Shown here one piece after another: positions 1,030 to 56,176 of a DNA stretch of 64,000 nt. This stretch comes from an uncultured virus (IMG/VR IMGVR_UViG_3300046008_001858) (Duplodnaviria; Heunggongvirae; Uroviricota; Caudoviricetes): IMG/VR virus record IMGVR_UViG_3300046008_001858; one strand, given 5' to 3'. Below the pieces are notes generated by a model. The model saw only the letters and a program-made list of their open reading frames with translations, was not told where the DNA came from and made no database searches. The position numbers and the translations under genes were made by a program. Position 1 is the stretch's first letter. Each line of letters opens with the position of its first letter.

Positions 1030-1043
1030 CTATAAATATTACA

Positions 1044-3989: not shown

Positions 3990-3999
3990 AGGACTTATT

Positions 4000-4308
4000 A
4001 TGAATGCAAATTGTGTTTTATTCGGGGAAATTATTTGTGAAATACAACTAATTGTTGCTGAAAATGGAGCTATCTGTCGAACAGAACAAAGACGAATAAT
4101 TCTTGAAATGGCTGATAAAATGATTAAAGATGGATTAATTGATTCAGAATCAACTGATATCGATGAAATTATACTTAATAATATTGACAAGTATTTAGGA
4201 ACTTTGTTAAAATTAAAAAATGAATATTCATTTATAAGAACTATAAATGCAATAAAATCACATGCTTCTGAATGCAATAATTCATTATTTGGATTAAGCA
4301 ATACATAG
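4000..4308 (+). CDS. Hypothetical protein
   Basis: 102-aa ORF with AAGGA RBS. Confidence 0.6.
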   Translation: MNANCVLFGEIICEIQLIVAENGAICRTEQRRIILEMADKMIKDGLIDSESTDIDEIILNNIDKYLGTLLKLKNEYSFIRTINAIKSHASECNNSLFGLSNT

Positions 4309-5335: not shown

Positions 5336-5776
5336 CTATAGATATTCATAAATCTCAATTTCTAAATCAAGATCTTCTAAATATTTGATCATTAATGGTT
5401 TTACTTGAGATTCAAAATCAAGTCCACCATTTTGACATCCTAGATGAGGGAATGCTATAGAAGTAATTCCTTTTTCTTTATATGTGTTTACAAATTTTTT
5501 TAAACCTTCTTCAATATTTTTAATTTCAGAAGGGTTTCTCCAATCAGTTTTTGTTGGAAAATTTAAAATCCATTTTTCTTCAGATTTATATAAAAATAAC
5601 TTACCAATATCTAGTAATTTATTATCACAAATCTTTTTATAAATAGAAAACATTCTTGGATATCGTTTTTTATATTTTAAAGCAATTCCTTTTCCCATAA
5701 CTCCAACACAATTTACTGTGTTAACGATGGTTTGAACTTCTGAAGAAAAAAAATCGCCTTTTATGAATTTTATCAT
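5336..5776 (-). CDS. Macrodomain ADP-ribose hydrolase (DarG/Poa1-like)
   Basis: GDFF, IVNTVNCVGVMGKGIA, ILNFPTK and SIAFPHLGCQNGGL motifs. Confidence 0.9.
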   Translation of the reverse strand: MIKFIKGDFFSSEVQTIVNTVNCVGVMGKGIALKYKKRYPRMFSIYKKICDNKLLDIGKLFLYKSEEKWILNFPTKTDWRNPSEIKNIEEGLKKFVNTYKEKGITSIAFPHLGCQNGGLDFESQVKPLMIKYLEDLDLEIEIYEYL

Positions 5777-5815
5777 ACGTCATCCTTTATTAATTGATAT
5801 TATAAATTTTTTATA

Positions 5816-6055
5816 TTAATATTTTTTATCTTTTAATGCTAACCATATTTGTTTATCTAATCTATATTGAATTAATCCATTTATAAAAATATAAGATATT
5901 AATAGCAATATAAACAAATAAAATTTATCTGTAAACATATAAATTAAAATAAAAAATGGAATAAGTAAACTTAAGTTATCAATAAAACTAAATTTTAAAT
6001 ACTTTAAAAATGAAGGAAACTCTTGTAATTTAATAATTTCGTCAATATGAATCAT
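5816..6055 (-). CDS. Hypothetical membrane protein
   Basis: 79 aa with two hydrophobic segments, GGAG RBS. Confidence 0.55.
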   Translation of the reverse strand: MIHIDEIIKLQEFPSFLKYLKFSFIDNLSLLIPFFILIYMFTDKFYLFILLLISYIFINGLIQYRLDKQIWLALKDKKY

Positions 6056-11531: not shown

Positions 11532-13868
11532 GTGCTAGCAAAAAGGAATGATATTTTGATTACAAATTTTCTTAAATCTACAAAACTTAAACCCTACAAA
11601 AAAATCGCTTCAAATTCTATATCTACTGATATAAGTCTTCTTTCTGATTCTGAATTAAATACATTTATTAATGACAATATTAGTAATAAAGAAATTGCTT
11701 TTTCAGTAATAAGAGAAGCTGCTAAAAGAACTTTAAATATTGAACCTTACGATGTTCAAATTATGGGTGCTTTAATCATTACAGATGGAAAAATAGCAGA
11801 AATGAAAACAGGTGAGGGTAAAACATTGACTGCAGGTATGACTGCAGTATATAATGCTCTCTTAGGTAGAAAAGTATATATAGTTACAGTTAATGATTAT
11901 CTAGTAGAAAGAGATTCTCATGAAAATAAGCCATTATTTGATTTCTTTGAATTAAGTGTGGGAACAATTGTTTCGACCAATAGAGATAATGAATATAAAA
12001 AAGAACAATACGATTGTAATATTGTTTATGGAACAAATTCAGAATTTTGTTTTGACTATTTAAAAGATAATATGGTTCATGATATTAATGATAAAGTTCA
12101 ACCTGTGCAGGATTTTGTTCTTATAGACGAAATTGATTCAATTCTTATTGACGAAGCAAGAACACCACTTATTATTTCTGGTCAAAATGATTATTCTTCT
12201 TATGATTTGTATATGATAGATATTTTTTCAAAATCATTAAAAGAAGGGAAAATGGTTGTTGAAGATTACACAAAAAAATATACAGATGATTTCTATATTG
12301 ATCGACAACAACATTTAGTAATTTTATCAGAAGAAGGGATTAATAAAATAGAAAGTTTTTTCAAAATAGAACATTTATATGAAAATCATGATACAAGTGG
12401 ATTAGCACATATTATTGAACAAGCATTAGTTGCAAATCATATTTATGAAAATGGATTACAATATATTATTAAAGATTCAAGAATTGTTCTTATTGACGAA
12501 AATACAGGAAGATTAACAGAAGGTCGTCAATTATCTCATGGCTTACACCAAGCAATAGAAGCAAAAGAAAATCTTATATTATCTCCAGCAACATCTGTTT
12601 TAGCTGAAATAACATATCAAAATTATTTTAAATTATTTGAAACAATCGGTGGTATGACAGGAACAATTGAAACTGAAGCAAAAGAGATGTATGAAGTTTA
12701 TAAGTTAGATATTATTGAAGTTCCTACAAATAAACCTGTTATTAGAAAAGATAAGAAGGATATTATCTTTACAACAAAAGAAAGAAAAATTAAATATCTC
12801 ATTAATTTAGTTAAAGAAATTAATTCAAAAGGACAACCAATTCTTATTGGAACAGCTTCAGTAACAGATAATGAAATATTAGAAGAAATTTTTGAAAAAG
12901 AAAATATAAAAGTTAATGTTTTAAATGCTAAAAATGCTGAAATAGAAGGTGAGATTATTGCTAAAGCAGGACAATTTGGATCAATTACTTTAACAACAAA
13001 TATGGCGGGACGTGGAGTTGATATAAAACTTGATCAACAATCAAAAGATGTTGGTGGATTATTTGTAATTGGATTTGAAAGATATGATAATCGTCGTATT
13101 GATAATCAATTACGTGGGAGAAGTGGCCGTCAGGGAGATCCAGGTGTAACACAATTTTTTGTTTCTTTAGAAGACAGAATGATAAAAGCATTCGCAGGAA
13201 GTAAATTGCTTAATATTGTATCTAATTTAGATATAGATGATTCTGAATTTCTAGAATCAAGAATGATTTCAAAAGGAATAGAAAAAGCTCAAATAAAAAT
13301 GGAAGAATCTAATTTTGAAAGTAGAAAAGAATTAGTTAAATATGATCAAATAATTTCGATTCAAAGAAATAAAATATTTGAATTAAGAGATTCAATTCTT
13401 TCTCCTGATTATGATTTTATTTCAAAAATAAATGAATTAATTGAACATTCTGTTGATCAAGTTTTTTCAAATGGAGAAGAAGACAAAGAAACAGCATATA
13501 ATAATTTATTGTCATTATTTAACATTATGGTTAATGATTATTTATATTTAAGAAAACAAGATTTAGTTCATATGTTTGAAAATAAAATAGCTTCAAAATT
13601 TGGAATAATGCCTCCAGAAGACATGTTTAGTTTTATGAGAAGTATTTATTTGGATGCTATTGATTCAAGTTGGATTGAAAATTTAACAAATCTTGAAGAG
13701 TTAAGAAAAGGTGTAGGTCTTAGACAAATAAACCAAAAAGATCCTTTAATTGAATTTAATAAGGAAGCTTATTCAATGTTTGCTACAATGTTAAATGTAA
13801 ATCAATTAAAAATCATGAAAACATTATTGCATGTTCAAATTGAAATAATAAAAGAAGAGACCAATTAG
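11532..13868 (+). CDS. secA: Preprotein translocase subunit SecA
   Basis: AEMKTGEGKT, VTVNDYL, DEIDSILIDEARTPLIISG, TNMAGRGVDI and RRIDNQLRGRSGRQGDPG motifs. Confidence 0.98.
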   Translation: MLAKRNDILITNFLKSTKLKPYKKIASNSISTDISLLSDSELNTFINDNISNKEIAFSVIREAAKRTLNIEPYDVQIMGALIITDGKIAEMKTGEGKTLTAGMTAVYNALLGRKVYIVTVNDYLVERDSHENKPLFDFFELSVGTIVSTNRDNEYKKEQYDCNIVYGTNSEFCFDYLKDNMVHDINDKVQPVQDFVLIDEIDSILIDEARTPLIISGQNDYSSYDLYMIDIFSKSLKEGKMVVEDYTKKYTDDFYIDRQQHLVILSEEGINKIESFFKIEHLYENHDTSGLAHIIEQALVANHIYENGLQYIIKDSRIVLIDENTGRLTEGRQLSHGLHQAIEAKENLILSPATSVLAEITYQNYFKLFETIGGMTGTIETEAKEMYEVYKLDIIEVPTNKPVIRKDKKDIIFTTKERKIKYLINLVKEINSKGQPILIGTASVTDNEILEEIFEKENIKVNVLNAKNAEIEGEIIAKAGQFGSITLTTNMAGRGVDIKLDQQSKDVGGLFVIGFERYDNRRIDNQLRGRSGRQGDPGVTQFFVSLEDRMIKAFAGSKLLNIVSNLDIDDSEFLESRMISKGIEKAQIKMEESNFESRKELVKYDQIISIQRNKIFELRDSILSPDYDFISKINELIEHSVDQVFSNGEEDKETAYNNLLSLFNIMVNDYLYLRKQDLVHMFENKIASKFGIMPPEDMFSFMRSIYLDAIDSSWIENLTNLEELRKGVGLRQINQKDPLIEFNKEAYSMFATMLNVNQLKIMKTLLHVQIEIIKEETN

Positions 13869-14130: not shown

Positions 14131-14877
14131 ATGAAAAAACAATTAATACTATTAAGTTTCGTATCGTCAATGTTACTAGCAGATACATTTACTAACCCAT
14201 TACCAGCTTCTGTTAAAGCAACAGATAATGGAGGAGTAAAACAAGCTATCGATGCATACAAAGATGGTATAGGGGCGGAATTAGTTGAAAAACCAGGAGT
14301 AGCAGTTGATAATTCAGCAATGAATATATTAACAATAAAATATGGTGAAGCAGCTAAAGTAAATAATGTAACTGTAGTAAATCAAGTAGTATATGGGAAT
14401 TCAAATCCAACTTCAGCAGATTTAGCCTTAGCTGGAAGATTGACGGTAGATGGGGCAGCATGTAATGATAGTAATATAAATACAACAGGAGAGACATGGT
14501 TAAACGGAGTTTGCCAAGGTGGTACTATGGTTAATGGAATAGCTTGTAACGATGGAAATGCTCAAACAACAAATGATACTTATAATAATGGAGTATGTTT
14601 AGGAACAAATTTATATGATAATTGTGAGGGAGGATTATTAACATATACAAATGCAGCAAATTACTGTGCTAGTAAAGGAATGAGAATTCCTACAAAAGCA
14701 GAAAGTATTGCTGGTGGAGGAAATATTCCATCTTGTAATACAGGAGCAACATATGTAAGTTTAACTTCTAATTGGACGTCAACTTTATATAATGCAAGTA
14801 ATTATTATGTTTGGATTGATTCAAATATTGGTCCTTGTGGTGTAACAGGAACAAGATATGTTCGTTGTGTTAAATAA
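14131..14877 (+). CDS. Secreted Cys-repeat protein with C-terminal lectin-like module
   Basis: Signal peptide, CND.N..T.D..NGVC repeats, C-terminal A..YC...GMRIPT..W..VRCVK; N-terminus shared with the 31318 ORF. Confidence 0.7.
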   Translation: MKKQLILLSFVSSMLLADTFTNPLPASVKATDNGGVKQAIDAYKDGIGAELVEKPGVAVDNSAMNILTIKYGEAAKVNNVTVVNQVVYGNSNPTSADLALAGRLTVDGAACNDSNINTTGETWLNGVCQGGTMVNGIACNDGNAQTTNDTYNNGVCLGTNLYDNCEGGLLTYTNAANYCASKGMRIPTKAESIAGGGNIPSCNTGATYVSLTSNWTSTLYNASNYYVWIDSNIGPCGVTGTRYVRCVK

Positions 14878-14892
14878 AATTAAAATAGCTTC

Positions 14893-15483
14893 TTAAGTTA
14901 TTTTAGGTAAAGATATATTATTTAATTTGATATAAATTCTAATACAGAAAAAAATAATAAAAATAGGAATAATTATTATATTGCTAGTTCCTAAACTATA
15001 TATTAAAATTCCTATAATAATTGCTAAAGTTCCATAAATATCTTCATTTAATAATGAAGGTTTTTTATGTAAAAGAATATCTTTTACAACACCTCCTCCA
15101 GTAGCTGTAATCAATGATAAAAATATATACCCACTGACTCCTAAATTATATTTATGAGCTATCAATGCACCTGCAATTGAAAATGAAATTAATCCTAATG
15201 TATCAGCAATTAAGTAAATTGTTTTATCCTCAATATTTTTTTCATGAATTTTAAATAAATATCCAAAAATTATTGTAATTATTACTAATATAATTGGGTA
15301 TGTAGCGGAAAAAACAAAAGGAATGTTATTTGTTGATATATCTCTTATTATACCACCTGCAAATGCTGTTACAAAAGCAAGAATGAATACACCTAAGATA
15401 TCAGTGTTATTTTTTACTCCTGATATATATCCGCTTAAAGCGAAAGCTATTATTCCAATGATATCAAATGCGTGTAATAACAA
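14893..15483 (-). CDS. TRIC/UPF0126 (YadS-like) membrane protein
   Basis: Duplicated FALSG..D..G...TAFAGGIIRD and TATGGGVVKD motifs. Confidence 0.88.
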   Translation of the reverse strand: MLLHAFDIIGIIAFALSGYISGVKNNTDILGVFILAFVTAFAGGIIRDISTNNIPFVFSATYPIILVIITIIFGYLFKIHEKNIEDKTIYLIADTLGLISFSIAGALIAHKYNLGVSGYIFLSLITATGGGVVKDILLHKKPSLLNEDIYGTLAIIIGILIYSLGTSNIIIIPIFIIFFCIRIYIKLNNISLPKIT

Positions 15484-15829: not shown

Positions 15830-16465
15830 GTGGTTTACGAAAAAACACTTTTAATGACAGCCAATGAAGGGAAAATCAATGAGTTTAAAGAACTTATGGA
15901 TGGATTAGTTGGTTTTGATCGATTTAAATCTCCAAATGAGGTTAAATCTCAAGATCCTATTGAGGTAATCAAACATAAAACAAAAGATATGTTTGATATG
16001 AATAAAAAAGGTGTCTTACAATATTATAATTTTGTTGGAAATAACACAATCATAATGGTTGAAGATACATCTTTAATGATTGAAGGATTTAGTGTTGGAA
16101 CTGACATTAAATATGTTGTCGATCATATGGAGGATTATGCAGGTTGTAAAGCTGAATGGAATGTTTATCTTGGTGTTACAAATGGAAATTCATTAGAAAT
16201 TTACATGGGTAGTATTATTGGCAATCTTACAAAACAAGGTTATGGATCTTCTAAATTTGGATTCGATAAACATTTTATTCCACATGATCTTGAACAAGAT
16301 TTTAACGAAGATTATCTGACATTAAGTCAACTTCAAGATATTGGTAAAAAACATTTATTTTCTGCTAGAGCTAGAGCAATTCATAATTTCAATAAAGGTA
16401 ATTTTATTCAAAAAATTTCTTTATCAGAAGTTCCTGAATGGACTGGCCAATATCAAGAAGAATAA
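15830..16465 (+). CDS. HAM1/RdgB-like non-canonical purine NTP pyrophosphatase
   Basis: T.NEGKINE, VEDTSL, FGFDKHF and SAR motifs. Confidence 0.85.
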   Translation: MVYEKTLLMTANEGKINEFKELMDGLVGFDRFKSPNEVKSQDPIEVIKHKTKDMFDMNKKGVLQYYNFVGNNTIIMVEDTSLMIEGFSVGTDIKYVVDHMEDYAGCKAEWNVYLGVTNGNSLEIYMGSIIGNLTKQGYGSSKFGFDKHFIPHDLEQDFNEDYLTLSQLQDIGKKHLFSARARAIHNFNKGNFIQKISLSEVPEWTGQYQEE

Positions 16466-19997: not shown

Positions 19998-21495
19998 GTC
20001 AAATTACCCCACCCTGAACACAACGCAGTTGCTTAAGCAGCATGACTGTAATAATGGATGAGGCTTGTATCTGGACTCCTATAAATAAATTTATAGCTAA
20101 CTAAAGTTAGAATCTCAATTCCTGGAATCGTAACCGAAACCAAGCTTTAACTTCAACATCCGACACACTAGGGACAATTGACAAATGCCCCGAGAAAACT
20201 TCTTTTACATACTTCGCTCTCAGTCCTATATTTAATCCACCAATAAAATCTGCATCGGCGGAATAACTACAATGTAAGCACACAAATTCCTCACCCTTAT
20301 TCTTTCTATTTCCAGAATCAGCGAATCCACATTTTGGACATTGCTGACTTGTTTTATAGGGATCAACAAACACAGGTAAAGAACTTTTCATGTAAGATTT
20401 ATATGCAATAGAACCTTGAAGGTCAAAAAAGCTCCACTGGCTTTTTCTTCTGTTTGCGTCTTTCTTTTTCTTACTGTGTTTTTTATTTGATTTTGTTTCA
20501 GTGTTTTCTCTTATATTAGTTAAATCTTCGATTCCTATTATTGAATGTTCTTCAACAATAGAATTAGCTATGCAATGATTTACATCCTTTATAAACCGTC
20601 TCTCTCTTCCACTAATCGAACGTAATCTTCTTTTAGCGGAACGAGTGCCTTTGGCTTGTAATTCAGCACGTTTTTTACTGTACGAATCTTTTATCCTTAA
20701 TGTTGTTTTTCCAAAATACATTTCTGTTTTTTTGGTCTTTGTATTTACGGTTACTGCAAGTTTTCGTTGTCCAACATCCACACCAATAAAATTATTAAAA
20801 TCTTCCAATGGTTGAAAATTGGTTGGAACTTCAATTGTAACTATAAGATAGACAATCTTATTTACGGTATCAAAATATAACAAACCACCATTAGCCCCAA
20901 ATTGATTAATGTAATCAATATGTTTATTATAGCCCTTGTAAGAGACTTTCATTCTTCCCGTCAAGGTTTTAATAGACACAATATCGTGATTAAACGAGAA
21001 ATCCTTTTTTGATTGAAGATTAATTGTTTGTGCTCCGAATTTGGCTGGCTGGGTTTGTGGTTTAGAATATTTTTTATCCATTCGTGTAGTAGCAATAGAT
21101 TTGTATTGAGCTGCAACTTCTCTAATAATTGAACAAGAGATTTGAGAAGGTAATTTATATTCTTCACGAAGTATGTTATAAGTTAAATTATGCAGATCAA
21201 GTTTATTTCTATTTTTTGTTTCGAAAGAAATTTTACTAACAAAATTTTTACCATCTTTACATGCTAAAGCTAAAGTTCGTAAATCATTATATTGTGATTT
21301 AGTTGTCTCCAACTTTAATTTTACTGATAGTATTACCACTTCTGGTAATAGTATTTTATTAGTTTTTCCTTTCATAATATTATTATATCATAAATTAAAA
21401 AATATTTACAAAAAGTAATTATATATCGCAGCTCCTCCAACTTCGTTCATTTCAGGATCCGCCCTAAATGACGAGGTTTCCGCTACTAAAAGTTA
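19998..21495 (-). mobile_element. IS200/IS605-family tnpB-only element (boundaries approximate)
   Basis: tnpB plus right-end motif CAGGGTGGGGTAATTTGAC (minus strand) and a GC-rich left-end hairpin region at about 21430-21490; no tnpA. Confidence 0.75.
20107..21375 (-). CDS. tnpB: RNA-guided endonuclease TnpB
   Basis: RuvC GVDVG, IGIEDL and ADFIGGLN motifs; TSQQCPKCG..CLHC zinc ribbon. Confidence 0.95.
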   Translation of the reverse strand: MKGKTNKILLPEVVILSVKLKLETTKSQYNDLRTLALACKDGKNFVSKISFETKNRNKLDLHNLTYNILREEYKLPSQISCSIIREVAAQYKSIATTRMDKKYSKPQTQPAKFGAQTINLQSKKDFSFNHDIVSIKTLTGRMKVSYKGYNKHIDYINQFGANGGLLYFDTVNKIVYLIVTIEVPTNFQPLEDFNNFIGVDVGQRKLAVTVNTKTKKTEMYFGKTTLRIKDSYSKKRAELQAKGTRSAKRRLRSISGRERRFIKDVNHCIANSIVEEHSIIGIEDLTNIRENTETKSNKKHSKKKKDANRRKSQWSFFDLQGSIAYKSYMKSSLPVFVDPYKTSQQCPKCGFADSGNRKNKGEEFVCLHCSYSADADFIGGLNIGLRAKYVKEVFSGHLSIVPSVSDVEVKAWFRLRFQELRF

Positions 21496-22032: not shown

Positions 22033-23049
22033 ATGAAACTCGTAAATGTTAATCAACTAAGAAACAAAAAAAATTTATTAGCTTTTTCTGGCGGAACAGA
22101 TTCAAGTGCACTGTTTAATGTTTTAATTTCAGAAAAAATTGAATTTGATATTATCATTGTAAATTACAATACTAGAGAAACATCTTTTGCTGAAACTATG
22201 TTTGCTCGTGATTTAGCAACAACTTATAATAAAATGTGTTTTACAAAAAGTGTTGTAATTGAAAATCATTCTAATTTTGAAAAAGTAGCAAGAGATGTTA
22301 GACATTCATTTTTCGAAGAAACAATTAAGGAATATAATTATGACAATTTAATTACAGGTCATAATCTTAATGATAAAATGGAATGGTTTCTTATGCAAAT
22401 GACAAGAGGCGCTGGAATTAGAGAATTATTTGGTATGGAACCAATTTCAGAAAAAGAAATTGATAATTCAGGTATTTTTTATAATATTGTTCGACCTTTG
22501 ATCTCTACTTCAAAAGAAGAAATTCTTGCTTATCTTGAAGATAATAAATTGAAACATTTTTTCGACGAATCTAATAATGATCAAAAATATACTCGTAATC
22601 AATTTAGAGCAAATTATGTATCAAAACTTGTTTCAGACTTTTCAACTGGTATTTCAAAAACATTTGATATTTTAGAAAAAGAAGTTGATTGTCTTGATAT
22701 TAAAGTTGAATATATTGAAAGATCCGATGATTATGCTATCGTAAAAGCTGCTGATTATAATTTTGTTTCTATTGCTAGTTTGTTATTAAAAAAATATGGA
22801 TATGTCATGAGCGGCCCTCAGCGTGATTCATTTCATACACTATGTGAATTAGTTGTTACCATTGGAACAATGCCTTATGTTATCTCTTATCATACAAATA
22901 CACTAACGTTTACACCTTATGTAATTGGAGTTGCAATGACAAATGAATTTAAGGAGAAAATGCGCAAATCTTTAGTTCATCCTAAGCATAGAGCTTATTT
23001 ATTTATGATTGAAAATAAAAATAATTTAAATTATACTTCTATTGTATAA
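22033..23049 (+). CDS. tilS: tRNA(Ile)-lysidine synthetase
   Basis: AFSGGTDS PP-loop, FEKVAR, TGHNLND..E, IVRPL and DESN..KYTRNQFR motifs. Confidence 0.95.
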   Translation: MKLVNVNQLRNKKNLLAFSGGTDSSALFNVLISEKIEFDIIIVNYNTRETSFAETMFARDLATTYNKMCFTKSVVIENHSNFEKVARDVRHSFFEETIKEYNYDNLITGHNLNDKMEWFLMQMTRGAGIRELFGMEPISEKEIDNSGIFYNIVRPLISTSKEEILAYLEDNKLKHFFDESNNDQKYTRNQFRANYVSKLVSDFSTGISKTFDILEKEVDCLDIKVEYIERSDDYAIVKAADYNFVSIASLLLKKYGYVMSGPQRDSFHTLCELVVTIGTMPYVISYHTNTLTFTPYVIGVAMTNEFKEKMRKSLVHPKHRAYLFMIENKNNLNYTSIV

Positions 23050-32858: not shown

Positions 32859-33719
32859 ATGAAAAAAATTATTAAAACGTATAATGAACATAAATTAAGC
32901 ATTCATTTTTATTTAAAAGGTGTAATAAATCACTTTAAAACTGATAAGAATGATTTGAATTCATTGCAGCATATTATTAATACAGATAAATCAATTGAAA
33001 TTATTTATTTTGTAAATAATGATTATCAACAAATAACCCCATCTATTTTTAGAAATTTTATGGATAATGATAGAATTGGTGTTGATAAATCATATTATTT
33101 TAACATTATAAATTTCACGAAAGAAACTATTCAGATTAGTAATCCTTATTTACATTACAATACAGGAAGGCCAACTCTAACTTTAACAAAAAAAGAAGAT
33201 AATGGATATATAGTTATTGATTTTGATTTAATAAGATTATTAGAAGAATTAAGATTAATAGATCACAATAGCTTATTTTATAAAATAAATTCAACTATTG
33301 TAAGCTCTTCAGGTTTTATCTTAGGATTAGTATCATTATTTTTAATTTTTTACGGTATTTATATTTTTATAAATATGTTATTTTATTGGAATGCAGAAGA
33401 AGTCTTTCATAAAATATTTTCATCTATAATTTCTATTACTATAGGAATAGCTATATATGATTTAGCAAAAACATTTATCGAACAAGAAGTTATTTTTAAT
33501 AAAATGAATTATTCCAGTATTTCTCAGTCAGACATTTTAATTAAATTTCTAAATTCAATAATTATTGCTTTATCGATAGAATCTTTAATGGCAGTATTTA
33601 AAATTGTTTTATCAAATCCTGAACACATGATAAATGCCTTTTATCTTATATTAGGAGATACTTTATTAATATTAGGAACAGGGCTTTACATTTTTTTAAG
33701 TAGATATAATAAAAAATAG
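32859..33719 (+). CDS. PDC/Cache-like sensor domain fused to a 4-TM PsiE-like domain
   Basis: DKSYYF..ISNPY sensor-like part; IAIYDLAKT..E..IALSIESL membrane part. Confidence 0.65.
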   Translation: MKKIIKTYNEHKLSIHFYLKGVINHFKTDKNDLNSLQHIINTDKSIEIIYFVNNDYQQITPSIFRNFMDNDRIGVDKSYYFNIINFTKETIQISNPYLHYNTGRPTLTLTKKEDNGYIVIDFDLIRLLEELRLIDHNSLFYKINSTIVSSSGFILGLVSLFLIFYGIYIFINMLFYWNAEEVFHKIFSSIISITIGIAIYDLAKTFIEQEVIFNKMNYSSISQSDILIKFLNSIIIALSIESLMAVFKIVLSNPEHMINAFYLILGDTLLILGTGLYIFLSRYNKK

Positions 33720-33746
33720 TTAAAATTCTTACAGTTTTTAATAAAA

Positions 33747-33770
33747 TTTTAAGTTTAATATGTTATACTT
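33747..33770 (+). promoter_or_regulatory. Putative promoter of the leader/tRNA array
   Basis: TTTTAAG followed by TGTTATACT (extended -10), same layout as other promoters in the window. Confidence 0.55.
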
Positions 33771-33941
33771 CTGGTATCAAAAGGTAAAATATATCTTTTG
33801 TGGCTATAGAGAATAAATATGTTGTTTATGTCTCCATTTCTAAAGTAGTTTGGCAGATCCGTCATTCGAAACTAGAGAAGGATCATTTACAATATATTTA
33901 TTTTCTATAAAAAAATAAATATAAAATAAAAGGAGAATCAA

Positions 33942-34028
33942 ATGAAAACTGTTCAATCATATCAACCGTATCAGTATCAGCCGCAACATAGTGGCCATGG
34001 CCGTTCTCCTATGGAGAGAGATAGTTAA
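33942..34028 (+). CDS. Leader peptide 1, MKTVQSYQPYQYQPQHSGHGRSPMERDS
   Basis: AAGGAG RBS; Tyr/Gln/Pro/His-rich; followed by hairpins and a terminator. Confidence 0.75.
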   Translation: MKTVQSYQPYQYQPQHSGHGRSPMERDS

Positions 34029-34056
34029 TTCTATCTTTTTTCATAACAAATCTCTT

Positions 34057-34110
34057 AAGGGGGGATTTGGAGAAGGTCTTAGGATCTAATCCAAGTCTCC
34101 CCTTTTTTTT
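34057..34110 (+). terminator. Intrinsic terminator (attenuator 1)
   Basis: AAGGGGGGATTTGGA/TCCAAGTCTCCCCTT stem followed by a T-run. Confidence 0.85.
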
Positions 34111-34267
34111 GGTCTATAAAATAGGGTTTTTGAATATTTAAATGTTCAATTTAGATTTTTGAATATAAATATATTCAATTTAATATAAAAATAAATAACA
34201 ACAAACACGCAGTGTGTGCATTCGTAAGAATACGAAGTAGGCATTAGCGAAACAGGAGAAAATTGAA

Positions 34268-34342
34268 ATGCAAACTTTAACTTATCAATATCAGCATAGC
34301 TATCAACCCCAACATCCTAGTTGTAGGAGAACTCTCATGTGA
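34268..34342 (+). CDS. Leader peptide 2, MQTLTYQYQHSYQPQHPSCRRTLM
   Basis: AGGAG RBS; shares YQPQH with leader 1. Confidence 0.75.
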   Translation: MQTLTYQYQHSYQPQHPSCRRTLM

Positions 34343-34384
34343 CTTTTTTTAAGGTCATAACCCAGAAAAACTGAAAAAGTTTTT

Positions 34385-34436
34385 AAGGGGAAGGAAAGAG
34401 AGATCTTCGTAGATTTTTCTTCCTTCCCCTTTTTTT
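34385..34436 (+). terminator. Intrinsic terminator (attenuator 2)
   Basis: AAGGGGAAGGAA..TTCCTTCCCCTT long stem followed by a T-run. Confidence 0.85.
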
Positions 34437-34640
34437 ATGCTTTAAATAGTACAAAAAAGGTATTTTTGTCGAAAGATGAGAAGTATTTACTGAGTAATTA
34501 TTTATTAGGTGATAACACCGACAGCTGGTGGTTATTGATAATAAATAATAAAAAGATGAATAAAGAAAATTATTTAGTAGAACAAGTGAATTACGTAATA
34601 AACTTGAAATACCTGTTTTGTGCTATTTATAGCAATATAT

Positions 34641-34732
34641 GCTGAATTTCCCTCTCGACTGAATACGTAAATCGGTTGACTTTAAACAGAGAGGTGGTTA
34701 GTCGAAAGGTTAAATTCCTTAAGGAGGCACCA
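34641..34732 (+). ncRNA. Pseudoknotted tRNA-like RNA, divergent copy
   Basis: CCTCTC/GAGAGG, ACTGA/TCGGT, GACT/AGTC, 4-bp T stem, ACCA end. Confidence 0.6.
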
Positions 34733-34738
34733 AATTAT

Positions 34739-34832
34739 GTATTTCTTTCCTTCTACTCGGCTGTAACCCGAGCGTCTAAAAAACGGAGGGGTAGTATTAA
34801 GACAGGAGGTGCAAGTCCTCGGAAATACACCA
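34739..34832 (+). ncRNA. Pseudoknotted 8/4 tRNA-Tyr(GTA)-like RNA
   Basis: 8-bp acceptor, CTCGG-CT-GTA-AC-CCGAG, 4-bp T stem, ACCA; no conventional D arm. Confidence 0.7.
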
Positions 34833-34843
34833 AAGATTATTAT

Positions 34844-34937
34844 GGGTCTCTTTCCTTCCACTCGGCTGTAACCCGAGCGTCTCAAATACGGAGGGGTAGT
34901 ATTAAGACAGGCTGTGCAAGTCAGCGGGGGCCCACCA
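34844..34937 (+). ncRNA. Pseudoknotted 8/4 tRNA-Tyr(GTA)-like RNA
   Basis: Same core as the 34739 copy with covarying acceptor and T stems. Confidence 0.7.
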
Positions 34938-34940
34938 AAT

Positions 34941-35025
34941 GGAGATGTCGTATAGAGACCGATTACAGCAGCCTGTAAAGCTGCCGCCTACAGCCGCCTT
35001 GGTTTGAATCCAAGCGTCTCCACCA
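34941..35025 (+). tRNA. tRNA-Tyr(GTA)
   Basis: GCAGC-CT-GTA-AA-GCTGC, long variable region, ACCA. Confidence 0.85.
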
Positions 35026-35034
35026 TTATTATAT

Positions 35035-35112
35035 CTGGGTGTAACGTGAATGGTTATAACGTGCTCCTTTGGAAGGAGGGACATGTGGGTTCGAGTCCCA
35101 CCGCTCAGACCA
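35035..35112 (+). tRNA. tRNA-Pro(TGG)
   Basis: C1-G72, A73, CTCC-TT-TGG-AA-GGAG, CCA. Confidence 0.8.
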
Positions 35113-35122
35113 AAATTATAAA

Positions 35123-35197
35123 TGATAATATAGCTCAAAGAATAGAGTACCATGAACGGTCGTGGAGATTTTGGTGTAATTCCAGATATTGTCAACA
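35123..35197 (+). pseudogene. tRNA-like gene without a canonical anticodon loop
   Basis: Acceptor, D and T-like stems present; anticodon arm CCATGA-ACGG-TCGTGG. Confidence 0.5.
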
Positions 35198-35256
35198 AAA
35201 AAAAGCTTTTCTAAAGAAATAAGTTAGCGCTGATTTAAATTTCTTTAGTTATTTAT

Positions 35257-35331
35257 CTAGCTGTTGGAAAGTGGTAATCCGCTTGATTTGGGATCAAGAG
35301 ACCGTGAGTTCGAATCTCACCAGTTAGACCA
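35257..35331 (+). tRNA. tRNA-Pro(TGG)
   Basis: CTTGA-TT-TGG-GA-TCAAG, C1-G72, ACCA. Confidence 0.9.
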
Positions 35332-35342
35332 AAATTATATTT

Positions 35343-35429
35343 GTATCGGTAGAACGTAAGTGGAAGCGTGCAGGTCTGTAAAACCTGAGTCTATTGGCCT
35401 TGAAAGTTCGATCCTTTCCCGATGCACCA
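35343..35429 (+). tRNA. tRNA-Tyr(GTA)
   Basis: CAGGT-CT-GTA-AA-ACCTG, variable arm, ACCA. Confidence 0.88.
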
Positions 35430-35439
35430 GAATAAATAT

Positions 35440-35516
35440 TGCGAAGTGGAGAAATTGGTGTCTCAACGTCCTTTGAAGTCGTAAACATGCAGGTTCGAAT
35501 CCTGCCTTCGCAGCCA
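35440..35516 (+). tRNA. tRNA-Gln(TTG)
   Basis: U1-A72, G73, CT-TTG-AA loop, CCA. Confidence 0.85.
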
Positions 35517-35525
35517 AACCAAATA

Positions 35526-35598
35526 TGCTCTTATCATCTAACGGTAGGATTTCGGCCATTTGTGCCGACCATGTCAGTTCAAGTCTGACTAAGAGCAA
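35526..35598 (+). tRNA. Atypical tRNA-like gene (loop CATTTGT), copy 2
   Basis: Near-identical to 957-1029; TCGGC/GCCGA stem. Confidence 0.6.
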
Positions 35599-35606
35599 CT
35601 AAAAAT

Positions 35607-35681
35607 GTGGCTTGTAGCTTAATGGATTAAAGCATCTCTTTGTGGCAGAGAATACTGGGTTCGATTCCCACGGTCACCCCA
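35607..35681 (+). tRNA. tRNA-His(GTG)
   Basis: TCTCT-TT-GTG-GC-AGAGA, C73, CCA. Confidence 0.78.
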
Positions 35682-35687
35682 TAATAT

Positions 35688-35773
35688 TGCGAAGTAAACG
35701 AATTGGTAGAGTTACGGGTCTTTGAAACCCGAGTCTTAGGACAGTGTAGGTTCGAAGCCTACCTTCGCAGCCA
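35688..35773 (+). tRNA. tRNA-Gln(TTG) with long variable arm
   Basis: CGGGT-CT-TTG-AA-ACCCG, GTC-TTAG-GAC variable hairpin, GCCA. Confidence 0.82.
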
Positions 35774-35821
35774 AAAGATAATAAAGAAGAGATTTCTTTA
35801 CAGAAAAGTTAAAGTATGAAT

Positions 35822-35890
35822 ATCTATTTAGTTTAATGGTAAAACAAGCTCAGAAGAGCTAGATGTTGGTTCGAGTCCAACAATAGGAAC
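35822..35890 (+). pseudogene. tRNA-like gene with 4-nt anticodon loop
   Basis: D arm GTTTAATGGTAAAAC, AGCTC-AGAA-GAGCT, T arm GTTGG-TTCGAGT-CCAAC. Confidence 0.55.
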
Positions 35891-35989
35891 TCCTTATTCA
35901 GAAAAACTTAGTAAGTCTAGAAAGAATGTGGGAGCATTCAAAAAACTAGAGAAATCTGCTCTTTGTTATCTTAAAATAACAAAAATTAT

Positions 35990-36063
35990 AACTCTTTCGT
36001 CTAGCGGTAGGACATTTGGTTTTGGACCAAAGAACTCAGGTTCGAATCCTGATAGAGTTTCCA
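35990..36063 (+). tRNA. tRNA-Gln(TTG)
   Basis: TTTGG-TT-TTG-GA-CCAAA, canonical T arm, CCA. Confidence 0.8.
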
Positions 36064-36198
36064 AAATATACAATAGTATGTATAAAGTCATATATTTTCT
36101 ATTAAGGCTTACATTAGTAAGTTTTAAGTGTGAATATATCTAATTAGATATTTTACATGTTATATATACCGATAAGAGATCTAAAAAGATATTTTATC

Positions 36199-36275
36199 GG
36201 TGTCTATAATCTAATGGCTAAGAGACTTGACTATGAATCAAGGACATCTCGGTTCGAATCCGAGTGGGCACACCA
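36199..36275 (+). tRNA. tRNA with ATG anticodon (His CAU decoder)
   Basis: CTTGA-CT-ATG-AA-TCAAG, full cloverleaf, ACCA. Confidence 0.8.
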
Positions 36276-36287
36276 AATTTCTAAAAT

Positions 36288-36363
36288 ATGTACAGAATAA
36301 ATAAACCTCCTCGTGGTTGTACATGGATACTTATATATTAATATATAAGGCTAATATGTTTAT
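36288..36363 (+). ncRNA. HDV-like self-cleaving ribozyme
   Basis: P1 ATGTACA/TGTACAT, P3 ACC-TCCTCGT-GGT, P1.1 GG, P4 hairpin, J4/2 GCTAA, P2 ATAAATA/TGTTTAT. Confidence 0.75.
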
Positions 36364-36371
36364 ATAAATAT

Positions 36372-36443
36372 GTGGTTCGTAGCATAAAGGTAATGCGCTA
36401 GATTGTGGCTCTAGATAAGAGGGATCAATACCCTTCGTTCCAA
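36372..36443 (+). tRNA. tRNA-His(GTG), degenerate
   Basis: CTAGA-TT-GTG-GC-TCTAG; imperfect acceptor and T loop; no CCA. Confidence 0.6.
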
Positions 36444-36444
36444 C

Positions 36445-36518
36445 GGGAATAAAGCTCTTTGGAGAGCGCTAGGAAGAGGTTCTTAGAGGATTTGGTTCGA
36501 TTCCAAATATTCTCAACC
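36445..36518 (+). pseudogene. tRNA-like gene without a canonical anticodon loop
   Basis: GGGAATA/TATTCTC acceptor, T arm TTTGG-TTCGATT-CCAAA, CTAGGAA-GAGG-TTCTTAG arm. Confidence 0.5.
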
Positions 36519-36759
36519 TAAAAATACTTCAATTAATAAATCACACAAAAATAATTTTTTATCTTAAAGATAATCAAACTATTCTCACCAACTTGTGTAA
36601 GTTGGTAGAGTAGCTTAGTTAAATAATAGCCATTATATATAAAAATGGGAAAATGACAATAAATGCACCTACACTCAACATTAGATTCATTGAAGAAATA
36701 ATTAAATCCATAACAAACTCCCTTATTCGCTAACGCTTATTAAGCACTGCGTGTTTTTT

Positions 36760-44206: not shown

Positions 44207-46192
44207 ATGTTCAGCAAATATTTAGATAATTTTATTAATATAGGTGTTTTAGATTCAGATACAGATGAAGAAAAATTAGCAAAAAAAATGTTTTCTTTTT
44301 TACCAATACTTATTGGTACATTAGCTATATTTTGGGGTTCATTTTATCTTTATTTAGGTCATTACATCTCTGCAGCGATTCCTTTAAGTTATTCAATCAT
44401 TTCAATCATTGGAATATGGAGAATGTCTATTACTAAAAGATTAGAAACAATTCAATTCACTCAATTATCTTTAGTTTTAATCTTACCTTTTTTATTAATG
44501 TGGTCATTAGGTGGATTTGAAGCAGGTAGTTATGTTTTAATTTGGGCTTTCTTTGCACCAGTAGCAGCATTATCTTTGAAAAAAGCGAGAAGTAGATGTT
44601 GGTTTATATTATTTGTAATTTTATCTTTATTGTCTGCAGCAATGAATACTTATTTAGAAACAAATATTGAACCAATTCCAATGGAATGGATTCATTTCTT
44701 TTTTGGATTAAATACTGTTTTTGGATTCACAGGAATATATATAATGTTAAAACATTATGTTAATAGTAGAAATGAAGATACAGAAAAAATATTATTAAGA
44801 GAACATTTAGCTATTATCGAAAAAAATGAAGCCTTAGAAGAAGTTAATTTAAAATTAGGTCATGCTGTAACAAAAGATAGTTTAACAGGACTAGACAATA
44901 GATTGTCATTAATGACTAAATTACATGCTATTTTAGAAAATAATTCAGAAGATAAATTTGCTTTATGTTTTATTGATTTAGATAGATTTAAACAAATTAA
45001 TGATTCTTTGAGCCATAACGTAGGAGATGAAGTTTTAATATATGTTGCAGATACATTAACAAAATGTGTAGATGAAACTGATATGGTCGCTCGCTTAGGC
45101 GGAGATGAATTTATATTATTAATGGAAAATATTGGAACTAAAGAAGAACTAACAATAAAAATAAATCATATTCTTGAATCATTAAGACAAATGATTCATT
45201 TTGGAGGATTAGATCTACAAGTTACTTGTAGTCTAGGTGTATCAATTTATCCAGATGATTTATCTATTGAAAATCAAACTTTAGATTCAAGAGCAAAAGC
45301 AAATTTAATGTTAAGAAATTCAGATACAGCAATGTATAAAGTTAAAGATGAAGGTAGGGATAAATTTATTTTTTTCAAAGAGGATATGCATACTGAAAAA
45401 TTAAATGAACTCATTTTAGAAACAGATTTAAGATTAGCATTAAAAAATGATAACTTTGAAGTCTATTATCAACCACAAATAGATATAAAAGAAGGTAAAG
45501 TTATAGGTATGGAAGCATTGGTAAGATGGATCCATCCTGAAAAAGGAATTATTTCTCCCTTAGAATTTATACCTTTAGCTGAAAAGATAGGTTTGATTAT
45601 TAATTTAGATAGAAGTGTTATGATTAAAGCTATGAATCAATTAGTAGAATGGAATAACTCAAAATTATTTAATGGAACAGTTTCTTTAAATTTATCAGCA
45701 AGACAATTAGAGCAACTTGATTTTGTTGATTTTGTTAAAGAGCAACTTTCTATCTCTGGTTGTAAAGCTGAATGGATTGAGTTAGAAGTTACAGAAAGTC
45801 ATATTATGCAAGATACAGAACAAGCAATATCAATTTTAAAGGAATTAGGTGAATTAGGAATAAAAATTTCTGTTGACGATTTTGGTGTAGGCTATTCATC
45901 TTTAACATATTTAAAGAAATTACCAATTAATAAATTAAAGATAGATAAATCATTCATTGACGGTGTCCCATATGATCGAGGTGATACGTCAATAGTAAAA
46001 GCAATAATTGTTATGGCAACTGGATTAGGACTTGAAATAATAGCTGAGGGTATCGAAAATACTGAGCAAAAAGAATTCTTACTTGACAATGGATGTTACT
46101 TAATGCAAGGATACTTATGTTCTAAACCGTTAAGTGCTTCTGCTTTTGAAGATTTTGTAAAAGTTGGTTGTCCTAAGAAAGTTAAATGTTGA
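44207..46192 (+). CDS. Membrane-bound GGDEF-EAL c-di-GMP enzyme
   Basis: N-terminal TM domain, ARLGGDEF, YQPQ..EALVRW, DDFGVGYSSL, LKIDKSF and QGY motifs. Confidence 0.95.
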   Translation: MFSKYLDNFINIGVLDSDTDEEKLAKKMFSFLPILIGTLAIFWGSFYLYLGHYISAAIPLSYSIISIIGIWRMSITKRLETIQFTQLSLVLILPFLLMWSLGGFEAGSYVLIWAFFAPVAALSLKKARSRCWFILFVILSLLSAAMNTYLETNIEPIPMEWIHFFFGLNTVFGFTGIYIMLKHYVNSRNEDTEKILLREHLAIIEKNEALEEVNLKLGHAVTKDSLTGLDNRLSLMTKLHAILENNSEDKFALCFIDLDRFKQINDSLSHNVGDEVLIYVADTLTKCVDETDMVARLGGDEFILLMENIGTKEELTIKINHILESLRQMIHFGGLDLQVTCSLGVSIYPDDLSIENQTLDSRAKANLMLRNSDTAMYKVKDEGRDKFIFFKEDMHTEKLNELILETDLRLALKNDNFEVYYQPQIDIKEGKVIGMEALVRWIHPEKGIISPLEFIPLAEKIGLIINLDRSVMIKAMNQLVEWNNSKLFNGTVSLNLSARQLEQLDFVDFVKEQLSISGCKAEWIELEVTESHIMQDTEQAISILKELGELGIKISVDDFGVGYSSLTYLKKLPINKLKIDKSFIDGVPYDRGDTSIVKAIIVMATGLGLEIIAEGIENTEQKEFLLDNGCYLMQGYLCSKPLSASAFEDFVKVGCPKKVKC

Positions 46193-53965: not shown

Positions 53966-54201
53966 TTAAATTTAATATTGAATTAAGTTTTTTATTAAAA
54001 TTTAATTCAGTGTTAGCAAACTGAGGAATTTTCTAGTTAACCTAAAGAACTATACGTATTTGAGTTTGTACGTAACCGACTCTCGATTTGGAACTACTGC
54101 AGATAAGCGAGCAGCCAACGTAGCTTAGACTTTACAGATGGTAGCCTGGCAGTTTAGAGTAAACTGTGTTACAAGTGTTTCAGCTAAGAAATGCGAAAAA
54201 T

Positions 54202-54405
54202 ACATAGTGGCGGAATAACTTTTAAGACTGATATGAAAAGTTCTTAAGTAGAAAGACGCAAGCGGTTAGTAGACGTACACCTATACATTTTCAAATAGGT
54301 AGATCTCGTGTGCAAAGTTAGGCTGGAAACCGAGTTAATGCTAGTCAGGAAAATGTAGCATGAATCTAAGCACACAATCCAATGGTGTAAGTCCATTGGC
54401 TATGT
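54202..54405 (+). ncRNA. Expanded tRNA-like RNA
   Basis: ACATAGTGGCGGAAT..AGACGC..CAATGG-TGTAAGT-CCATTG-GCTATGT. Confidence 0.65.
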
Positions 54406-54434
54406 TATAGCAGCGATTAAATTCGCATTCAAAT

Positions 54435-54656
54435 AATAGTGGTGGAATAAATATTGTTGTAGGTATGGGTGTAGCTCAGGTATATTAGAGCGCTACTGTA
54501 AAAGGTAGAGGTCGCAGTGAAAATCTGCCACGAATTGAACCGTAAGACCACGATGATAAAGACACGATTAACCAGATGTAATAATTTCGGCACTTGATAT
54601 GTCGCAAGGAGCATGTGGAGAATATCAAATCCAAGAGTGAGAGTCTCTTGGCTATT
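54435..54656 (+). ncRNA. Expanded tRNA-like RNA
   Basis: AATAGTGGTGGAAT..AGACAC..CAAGAG-TGAGAGT-CTCTTG-GCTATT. Confidence 0.65.
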
Positions 54657-54664
54657 TAATATTA

Positions 54665-54738
54665 TGAATATAGTAACTCAATTGGTTAGAGTGTCCTTCT
54701 ATGGTCAGGTTATAGGTTCGAATCCTATCTATATTCAC
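54665..54738 (+). pseudogene. tRNA-like gene with collapsed anticodon arm
   Basis: Acceptor GAATATAG/CTATATTC, canonical D and T arms. Confidence 0.6.
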
Positions 54739-55024
54739 TTAAAAATTATTAACTGCTTGATTGAATTGAACACTAGTAGATCAAGAGTCGTTTCCAAGGT
54801 TCTTTGGCTGGACGACCGTAGAGATGGAAATTCTCTCAGATACAATACGAAATTATAAGTTGTATCACATATTGTAGGTTGCAGTCAACAGGCTGTAATT
54901 AAATAGGATGATTTGAATTTATTCAAAAAGATAGAGACTTACCTACAATATTAGGATTGCTAAATTTCAGTTGAGCTTATCTTCTTTTCCAGAGTGGTGG
55001 AATTAAGAGATTTAGTCCTAAAAA

Positions 55025-55145
55025 AAATATTTAATGAAGACTATAAATGGAAAGAGGTTCGATTCCTCGGGAGGCGGAGATAACTTCAATGTCGCCTAGG
55101 TGAGCGCTGCGGCAAAATAGCTCAATTAGTTTTCACAAAATATTT
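55025..55145 (+). ncRNA. Circularly permuted tRNA mimic (YrlA-like topology), copy 1
   Basis: Long closing stem enclosing T arm, then a capped stem, then a D-like hairpin. Confidence 0.6.
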
Positions 55146-55244
55146 AAGACCGCTAGTAACGGACTAAAAGAAATACACCAGGAACTCCCGTAGAAATACG
55201 TCGTTTTTTCGAAACATAATGGGTGTACGAATCTTATTAATTAA

Positions 55245-55346
55245 TAAATATTTAATGAAGCATACTATGCGGTTCGAGCCCGTACCTACATTTGATAGGT
55301 TAAAAATCCTCTTGGAAAGGACGTAGTATGTTTCACAAAATATTTA
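55245..55346 (+). ncRNA. Circularly permuted tRNA mimic (YrlA-like topology), copy 2
   Basis: Same AAATATTTAATGAAG/TTTCACAAAATATTT scaffold; T arm GCGG-TTCGAGC-CCGT comes first. Confidence 0.65.
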
Positions 55347-55398
55347 GTTAAGAGGGTTCTGATATGCAAAATATAAAAGGTGATTTTTAATTAATAGT

Positions 55399-55559
55399 TA
55401 CATAGTGGCGGAATATAGACGCAGAGTGAGTTACAAAAATGTAAGAATAACTGTATGGTTCGGAATCTCGGTTATTCACAACTAACATAGGTAGTAGATG
55501 TCCGATCTTAGTCCTGAATAGAAAATTTTGTTCAAGAGTGAAAGTCTCTTGACTATGTA
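55399..55559 (+). ncRNA. Expanded tRNA-like RNA
   Basis: TACATAGTGGCGGAATATAGACGC..CAAGAG-TGAAAGT-CTCTTG-ACTATGTA. Confidence 0.65.
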
Positions 55560-56176
55560 TTTAAAATATTGTTCATTTTGCTGAATTCAATATATATTGA
55601 CACCAAGATGATTAGTGTAAAGTTGATATTAAAGAAAGCACCAGAAACTTTGTTTTAGTGTTGCAATCATTTCTATCACAACAGCAATATTTTTATTTAT
55701 GCACAAGGCAATCAAGGATTGTTGAAACTTGCAAGTTTGTGCATAATTAAATATCTCATTCAGTCCCAGAAGTCGTTTATGGGATTGATAGGATATTTGT
55801 TCGATAGTATAGAAACGAACTTTGAATATGGTACGAAAGTACAGAATTTAGAAATAAGTTGGCACATATTCGGCTGATCACGTACAATCAATCTTCCTTG
55901 AGTTGTATGGAGCACAAGCATTTATCTGAAACATCGGCATAAAGATTTTGGAAGTAGCTTTTTTGAAGAAAACTAGGGTTTTGCTAACATAAAAACTCAA
56001 TTACGCTTTATCCACCTCTAATTCATTACTCTCTTGTCGAGTATTAGTTATGTGCCAACGATAGGCGGCTTCTATTTAATCAAAACTTCAACCCCATATT
56101 TATCTTCATTTTAGACTTATTGTCAATTATTTTTATTAATTATTATATAATTAACTTATATAAAGGAGAAACAAAA

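Follow-up and report, generated by a model that had tools for sequence, protein, structure and literature searches.

Multivalent leader-peptide attenuators are known from the thr and ilvGMEDA operons, and attenuators of the same kind control the trp, his, leu and phe operons. In E. coli, the pheST operon for phenylalanyl-tRNA synthetase is likewise governed by a leader attenuator, pheM. Leader-peptide attenuation is described in general terms in the available text of two papers (PMC1183508, PMC3082878). Here, a 64,000-nt stretch of DNA from an uncultured virus (IMG/VR record IMGVR_UViG_3300046008_001858), referred to below as the window, was analysed with respect to two tandem leader units that precede an array of transfer RNA (tRNA) genes for Tyr, Pro, Gln and His. 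It was considered rather probable that these units were two ribosome-sensing transcription attenuators, placed in series, which gate the array.

Several properties of the locus were those of amino-acid operon attenuators. Each unit had a short open reading frame (ORF) rich in the codons to be monitored, an intrinsic terminator after it and a predicted alternative pairing with the 5' arm of that terminator that would depend on ribosome position; in addition, several amino acids were represented in each leader and rare codons stood at regulatory positions. In contrast to those attenuators, the window would regulate tRNAs and tRNA-like RNAs rather than biosynthetic or aminoacylation enzymes, carried two complete units in tandem on a phage- or plasmid-like carrier, and was without a clear 1:2 anti-antiterminator. 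Since tRNA genes would be regulated, the locus was not assigned to the classical attenuators. The pheM attenuator resembled the proposed function in that its leader peptide senses codon decoding and acts on a gene that serves translation, although it controls a synthetase and not tRNAs and consists of a single unit monitoring a single amino acid. T-box riboswitches likewise respond to the state of a particular tRNA and act on a terminator; however, they bind the tRNA directly and have no ORF, and the T-box covariance model gave no match in 33700-36700 at E<=5.

The trn operon (L-array) of Anabaena sp. PCC 7120 was a similar case on the side of the regulated genes, being, according to the available text, an accessory array of tRNAs, normally silent, that is turned on under impaired translation (PMC8421152, PMC10272220). 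Unlike the window, it is described there as controlled by direct repeats that lie within its promoter and by the repressor TrcR (PMC8421152). The words attenuat*, leader and terminator did not occur in the available text of PMC8421152, nor attenuat*, leader peptide, terminator and stalling in that of PMC10272220, and the accessible part of the work of Naville and Gautheret mentioned no such case for tRNA genes (PMC2965389). No description of leader-peptide attenuation of tRNA genes was found in the literature searched. When and why phages carry and express tRNA genes is an old open question. If the proposed function is true, a leader written in the codons of the downstream tRNAs would make tRNA supply self-regulating and would directly sense a failure of decoding, also one brought about by anticodon nucleases of the host. 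For amino-acid operons, control of this kind is textbook knowledge; what the window adds is that the gates stand in series and that the array is almost confined to four amino acids.

The sequence-only reading, an earlier annotation made from the letters of the window, had described two units of one layout, namely a ribosome-binding site, a short ORF, a hairpin over the stop codon running into CATAAC, and a second hairpin with a T-run, the two ORFs differing in sequence while sharing YQPQH. All of these elements were found, and the coordinates and residue counts agreed (Table 1). Tyr, Gln, Pro and His (Y/Q/P/H) made up 13 of the 28 residues of ORF1 and 12 of the 24 of ORF2, compared with 10.9% in 40 long ORFs of the window (binomial P of 2.4e-6 and 2.2e-6, respectively). 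Ranked by Y/Q/P/H content, the leaders were first and third among 1950 short ORFs, and they took the top two ranks among the 92 short ORFs that carried a Shine-Dalgarno (SD) site. A degenerate DNA pattern for YQPQH matched twice in the window and not once in 100 shuffles. Scored against the amino acids served by each of the three remaining tRNA islands of the window, the leaders matched at only 2-5 of 28 and 2-5 of 24 residues. An upstream scan of those three islands found no SD-bearing, composition-matched short ORF, in agreement with the earlier statement that they lacked such a leader.

Units 1 and 2 were recognized by alignment as diverged paralogues. The features kept in both were the SD-ATG-(A/C)AAACT start, the YQ-YQ-YQPQH cluster, a CUC..AUG element, UCAUAAC, UUAAGGGG at the base of the terminator stem and the T-run, and the peptide tails of ORF1 and ORF2 were unlike each other. 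Two nucleotide differences were present between the YQPQH stretches, both of them synonymous; together with the SD sites and the start codons, they point to translation of the leader ORFs. Rare codons were frequent in the leaders: CCG occurred twice and CCC once among the five Pro codons (8% together in the background), and CAG accounted for 3 of the 10 Gln codons (background 10%).

The downstream array comprised, in order, Tyr, Pro, Pro, Tyr, Gln, Lys-type, His and Gln tRNAs, a loop-less tRNA-like RNA, Gln, His(AUG) and His tRNAs and a second loop-less tRNA-like RNA. Of the 11 readable anticodons, ten belonged to Tyr, Pro, Gln or His and one to the Lys-type tRNA. The earlier tally of two Tyr, two Pro, three Gln and three His tRNAs was reproduced by ARAGORN; the claim that every readable anticodon belonged to these four amino acids held for those ten and failed at 35526-35599, which was called as Lys(UUU).

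The two terminators were the strongest of 20 candidates consisting of a hairpin and a T-run in the 64 kb, the third best reaching -16.7 kcal/mol, and both were overlooked by a simpler terminator scan owing to its limits on stem and loop. Fold z-scores against shuffles were -6.57 for unit 1 and -5.61 for unit 2. The hairpins over the stop codons were considered as classical 1:2 elements and rejected as such, because they coexisted with the antiterminator in the folds.

The leaders were folded up to the terminator loop with the bases under the ribosome blocked (P-site -14 to +14), and the SD region was blocked as well once a second ribosome could load. In these masked folds, the 5' arm of the terminator was held in both units by two helices, a small hairpin following directly on UCAUAAC and a long-range helix, P1, in which a segment of the ORF was paired with the distal half of the arm. 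The small hairpin of unit 1, CAAATCTCTT/GGGGGATTTG, formed whenever the 3' arm of the terminator was missing, in line with the earlier proposal that this sequence pair can sequester the 5' arm. In unit 2, a small helix after UCAUAAC (34361-63 with 34387-89) enclosed an AU hairpin. In unit 1 as in unit 2, the P1 strand began 10-11 nt downstream of the cluster's final His codon. As long as the P-site lay no further than the last codons of the cluster, sequestration of the 5' arm amounted to 19/22 in unit 1 and 13/24 in unit 2, and it dropped to 10/22 and 3/24, respectively, once the ribosome had moved past the cluster. An untranslated unit 2 defaulted to the antiterminated fold. The three-way shape was common to both units even though their sequences differed, and the P1 geometry in both units is an addition to what had been described for this DNA.

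Table 1. Features of the window and of the Cellulophaga phage stretches used for comparison. Positions refer to the window unless another stretch is named.
Feature	Position	Strand	Details
Leader ORF1	33942-34028	+	28 codons, MKTVQSYQPYQYQPQHSGHGRSPMERDS; SD AGGAGA 5-10 nt upstream
Y/Q/P/H cluster of ORF1	33960-33989	+	
Antiterminator strand P1, unit 1	33999-34009	+	pairs with 34071-34080; difference in free energy (ddG) -4.7 kcal/mol
Hairpin B1 over ORF1 stop	34011-34045	+	from folding; runs into TCATAAC 34041-34047
Short sequestering hairpin, unit 1	34047-34069	+	34047-56 with 34060-69; covers first 10 nt of the 5' arm
Terminator 1	34059-34110	+	stem 34059-34102, T8 34103-34110; -29.2 kcal/mol
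Leader ORF2	34268-34342	+	24 codons, MQTLTYQYQHSYQPQHPSCRRTLM; SD AGGAGA upstream
Y/Q/P/H cluster of ORF2	34283-34315	+	
Antiterminator strand P1, unit 2	34326-34336	+	pairs with 34398-34408; ddG -9.5 kcal/mol
Hairpin B2 over ORF2 stop	34338-34359	+	from folding; runs into TCATAAC 34355-34361
Terminator 2	34387-34436	+	stem 34387-34429, T7 34430-34436; -27.5 kcal/mol
tRNA array	34941-36515	+	ARAGORN/Rfam
Leader units of phi38:1	13253-13416; 14729-14918; 15972-16137		stretch L166 (NC_021796)
Leader units of Cellulophaga phage	3040-3190; 3990-4165; 5772-5925		stretch L168; further units in L167
Promoter-like stretch	33720-33769	+	TTAAAA-16-TAAAAT (consensus match), then TGTTATACT (by eye)
Long AU-rich hairpin before ORF1	33805-33909	+	26-nt arms, 85% complementary
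Two TTGAA-N10-TTCAA palindromes	34130-34178		29 nt apart, between terminator 1 and ORF2 (repeat search)
Structured RNA domain	34438-34634	+	197 nt, 28-nt closing arms; 2 nt after T-run of terminator 2
Paralogous tRNA-like RNAs	34738-34832; 34844-34937	+	7-nt GUA (Tyr) loop, 3' CCA
Lys(UUU)-type tRNAs	35526-35599; 957-1030		near-identical pair, A33, no encoded CCA
Loop-less tRNA-like genes	35822-35890; 36445-36515		Rfam tRNA, 44.7 and 41.7 bits
tRNA-His, anticodon AUG (A34)	36200-36275		
Candidate hepatitis delta virus (HDV)-like ribozyme	36288-36363	+	12 nt past tRNA-His(AUG)
SecA	11532-13868		~40% identical to best tblastn matches, which are secA-type sequences in phage-labelled records
TnpB	20107-21375		
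TilS-like PP-loop protein	22033-23049		
GGDEF-EAL protein	44207-46192		

It was proposed that in each unit the short ORF would be translated during transcription of the leader by RNA polymerase. With fast decoding of the Tyr, Gln, Pro and His codons, the ribosome would come to cover the segment that lies 10-11 nt after the final His codon, this segment could not pair with the 5' arm, and the stable terminator would form and stop transcription. A ribosome stalled within the Y/Q/P/H cluster would leave the segment free, and the segment, together with the adjacent small hairpin, would tie up the 5' arm so that the polymerase reads on. Passage through both gates would yield a precursor with the large structured domain, the tRNA-like RNAs and the Tyr, Pro, Gln and His tRNAs, which would therefore be made when decoding capacity is short and be shut off once it is restored. 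The trigger may be starvation, cleavage of host tRNAs or simple feedback.

An independent test of the match between leader and array was offered by published Cellulophaga phages, a group unrelated to the window. In phi38:1 (NC_021796), the promoter-like motif GTTGTATATTT occurred three times in 24 kb and was followed each time by an ORF of 25-29 codons, a terminator and a tRNA block. Leader A (MKTIMNIATDIRTKGVKLLGRSRVL) matched its own block, Lys-Ile-Gly-Met-Asp-Thr-Val-Arg, at 19 of 25 positions. Leader B matched Ser-Asn-Phe at 13 of 29 positions, or at 17 of 29 when an uncalled Tyr-like gene was counted, and leader C matched Pro-Glu-Gln-His-Leu-Arg at 17 of 29, compared with 2-9 matches when the leaders were set against the other blocks. 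The binomial P values for leaders A, B and C were 0.0028, 0.00045 and 0.00053, respectively. In folds of all three units, the 5' arm of the terminator was paired with a segment within the ORF until the ribosome arrived. The same three units were present in Calle_1. The unrelated phage phi4:1 (146 kb) carried homologous blocks, each preceded by a short ORF and a terminator, for which hand counts gave 11/22 for leader C', 10/32 for leader B' (14/32 if a pseudo-tRNA is Asn) and 28/39 for leader A' over the annotated gp075 frame, the start of which is uncertain. Thus, leader composition tracks the anticodons of the block in the Cellulophaga phages, and the comparison of leader codons with array anticodons, which the sequence-only reading had suggested for related genomes, came out positive in this unrelated group.

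The Cellulophaga units shared with the window a short ORF written in the amino acids of its tRNA block and a terminator whose 5' arm can pair with a segment of that ORF, and the N-terminus MKT of their leaders resembled that of ORF1. They differed from the window in that every block had a single unit behind a promoter-like motif of its own and in that SD sites were absent, consistent with a Bacteroidota host, whereas the leaders of the window have them; no sequence homology to the window was detectable. In the annotations, several of these leaders are entered as hypothetical proteins (gp066, gp070, gp075) or overlap with wrongly called coding sequences, and others are unannotated. The available part of the RNA-seq paper on phi38:1 in its host Cellulophaga baltica did not discuss the units (PMC5335546). 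Because the Cellulophaga phages with such units are cultured, the idea lends itself to laboratory experiments. It was also observed that phi38:1 contains an uncalled tRNA-Ala-like gene at 13425-13497 of stretch L166.

The region between terminator 2 and the array, and the array itself, contained further tRNA-like RNAs. The paralogous pair ahead of the array received no call from ARAGORN or Rfam; in both members, an unusual helix around the anticodon hairpin replaced the D arm, and 5 of 24 pairs were compensatory between the paralogues, so that the Tyr-like RNAs noted earlier proved to be real structured paralogues. A third CCA-ended tRNA-like RNA is possible at 34636-34732. The two loop-less genes had an extended anticodon-arm stem closed by a 4-nt loop and no anticodon, and they may serve as decoys or mimics. 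Next to tRNA-His(AUG), family RF02682 aligned over its full length with a conserved core at 33.8 bits (E 6.5e-5 on 241 nt), which is below the gathering score of 44. HDV-like ribozymes of the type found beside phage tRNAs are named 'theta'. Unusual anticodon loops have been proposed, in the text available, as an evasion of anticodon nucleases (PMC10264068), and the anticodon loops of the A34 tRNA-His and of the A33 Lys-type tRNAs were of the kind described there.

A more specific version of the attenuator reading was also weighed, in which the locus would be an inducible counter-defence. The two units would form a two-stage stalling sensor of cleaved or depleted host tRNA-Tyr, -Gln, -Pro and -His and would switch on replacement tRNAs, including His(AUG) and the A33 Lys-type, together with possible decoys, that is, the loop-less tRNA-like RNAs and the two mimics with a Tyr anticodon; codon-matched leader attenuators would, more generally, be a widespread and so far undescribed form of phage tRNA control. 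This version was held only tentatively, as a possibility less likely than the plain attenuator reading.

Two strongly folded RNA domains flanked the leader region. The domain after terminator 2 reached -55.8 kcal/mol with z = -8.1 on the + strand, compared with -38.3 kcal/mol on the - strand, and was therefore taken to be a + strand RNA. For the hairpin before ORF1, z was -7.06 on the + strand and -2.73 on the - strand, a difference by which G-U pairs favour a + strand RNA. Neither domain matched an Rfam family, and both may be processing stalks. The downstream domain begins 2 nt past the T-run, which suggests that transcripts read through terminator 2, and its 5' arm leaves no space for a promoter directly after that terminator. 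Contigs from RNA libraries spanned 34071-34287 and 34119-34312 (two RNA and two DNA runs).

As to promoters, the single one claimed by the sequence-only reading was recovered only as a consensus match, and such sites were no commoner in the window than in shuffles (21 found, 22.0 expected). A motif, TATAAAAA..TAAATA, was common to both units, and two palindromes preceded ORF2. These palindromes might be an operator pair or the promoter of unit 2, and, taken together with the shared motif, a separate promoter for unit 2 is possible.

A number of observations weigh against the attenuator reading. The P1 duplex of unit 1 was no better than that of composition-matched shuffles (fraction 0.465), and that of unit 2 was marginal, the fraction of shuffles at least as good being 0.044. 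When the 3' arm was present, the terminators won by ~14 kcal/mol at equilibrium, and any switch must therefore be kinetic. A ribosome on the stop codon of unit 1 left the P1 strand free again, and in the ribosome-free fold of unit 1 this strand was taken up by the SD region. DNA of 25% GC content may also harbour a promoter for unit 2, or one after 34436. The RNA-library contigs were of low depth, identical and without variants or ends, and may reflect DNA carry-over. One tRNA of the array was Lys-type, though the leaders contain a single Lys codon. Finally, no relative of the element was found that would allow a covariation or orthologue test. On balance, the attenuation proposed earlier was partly supported by the match of codons and anticodons, by the exceptional terminators and by the conserved cluster, and was left weak by the pairing statistics of unit 1; the folding with a ribosome footprint that had been suggested as a check returned the switch shape in both units, with poor statistics for the first.

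Relatives were sought in IMG/VR, JGI metagenome contigs, GTDB genome contigs and phage and plasmid collections. In IMG/VR, none was obtained through the upstream protein, SecA, a family alignment or two exact tRNA-like patterns, and a search with the leader pattern gave 19 loci, all of them chance matches within unrelated sequence. No match was obtained in the metagenome contigs with a 24-mer. The family alignment of the downstream 146-residue protein recovered 125 relatives from these contigs, 80 of which were kept; one of the 80 was a 1.1-kb fragment of the same element, and a tRNA scan of the 42 longer loci among the 80 found none. The genome contigs gave no relative with the closest homologue, P0002, which is 64% identical and is carried by a 163-kb contig, and the leader pattern gave 66 loci there, none with a short Y/Q/P/H-rich ORF and 64 of them inside a reading frame of 100 codons or more. 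From the phage and plasmid collections, matches at the level of tRNAs or none were obtained.

It was also considered that the ORFs are ordinary paralogous genes for small Y/Q/P/H-rich proteins that serve some purpose themselves, each with a constitutive terminator, that the array has its own promoter and that the amino-acid match is indirect or coincidental. In its favour, both ORFs carry an SD site and a start codon and are followed by a terminator of their own, AT-rich DNA such as this is full of promoter-like sequences, and the antiterminator of unit 1 was without statistical support. However, this would require a composition match at P of ~2e-6 to have arisen twice, and peptide conservation between the paralogues was confined to the Y/Q/P/H cluster. 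The structured + strand RNA starting 2 nt past terminator 2 also speaks against it. In the Cellulophaga phages, moreover, leader composition shifts block by block in step with the tRNAs, and a shared peptide function is therefore no explanation. This alternative was judged improbable.

The exceptional strength of the terminators could instead mean that they are insulators that shield the array from upstream transcription, the ORFs aiding ribosome clearance or RNA stability and control being exerted at a promoter, with the palindromes as one possible means. The presence of two palindromic repeats between the units and the promoter control of the Anabaena tRNA array, as given in the available text (PMC8421152), fit such an arrangement. 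It would leave unexplained the use of the array's amino acids in the ORFs, the conservation of the cluster and the start of an RNA domain right after terminator 2, and was regarded as quite improbable. The least probable alternative, a trans-acting factor that binds the UAUCA repeats or UCAUAAC in the leader RNA and controls termination, with the frames secondary, would account for the three UAUCA copies per unit at spacings in multiples of three and for UCAUAAC at the same place in both units, but the SD sites, start codons and synonymous YQPQH differences point to translation, no RNA-binding regulator was identified among the 29 ORFs scanned with PHROGs and Pfam, and no Rfam family matched the leader.

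The attenuator reading was retained as the most probable one. The window has a GC content of 25%, contains four tRNA islands and reads in the standard genetic code; alternative codes were ruled out, as no frame ran on past TGA or TAG. In the PHROGs and Pfam scan, many ORFs were without a family match, and the rest included bacterial-type genes, among them a type I restriction R subunit and those listed in Table 1. All matches of SecA in the phage collection were below 60% identity and were secA-type sequences in phage-labelled records. DNA of the window was found in lake and freshwater metagenomes from many studies. The protein at 32859-33719, just upstream of the leader region, was located on a 228-kb contig, and its named homologues belonged to Sulfuricurvum, Sulfurimonas and other Campylobacterales (52-58% identity). 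We infer that the window is part of a large phage- or plasmid-like element of Campylobacterales-type hosts.

Two minor observations were made elsewhere in the window. The motif ATAGTGGCGGAATA had five matches with at most two mismatches (at 1677, 14269, 54204, 54436 and 55402), compared with 0.21 expected; four of the five copies were situated in long non-coding stretches, one of them ~53980-56000, beside tRNA islands 1 and 4, and two copies finished in one identical hairpin, CAAGAGTGA.AGTCTCTTG. This repeat is probably an undescribed repeated structured RNA. In addition, a 101-nt match to the tRNA model at 1361-1461 (38.2 bits) carried an insertion after the anticodon region and is possibly an intron-bearing tRNA.

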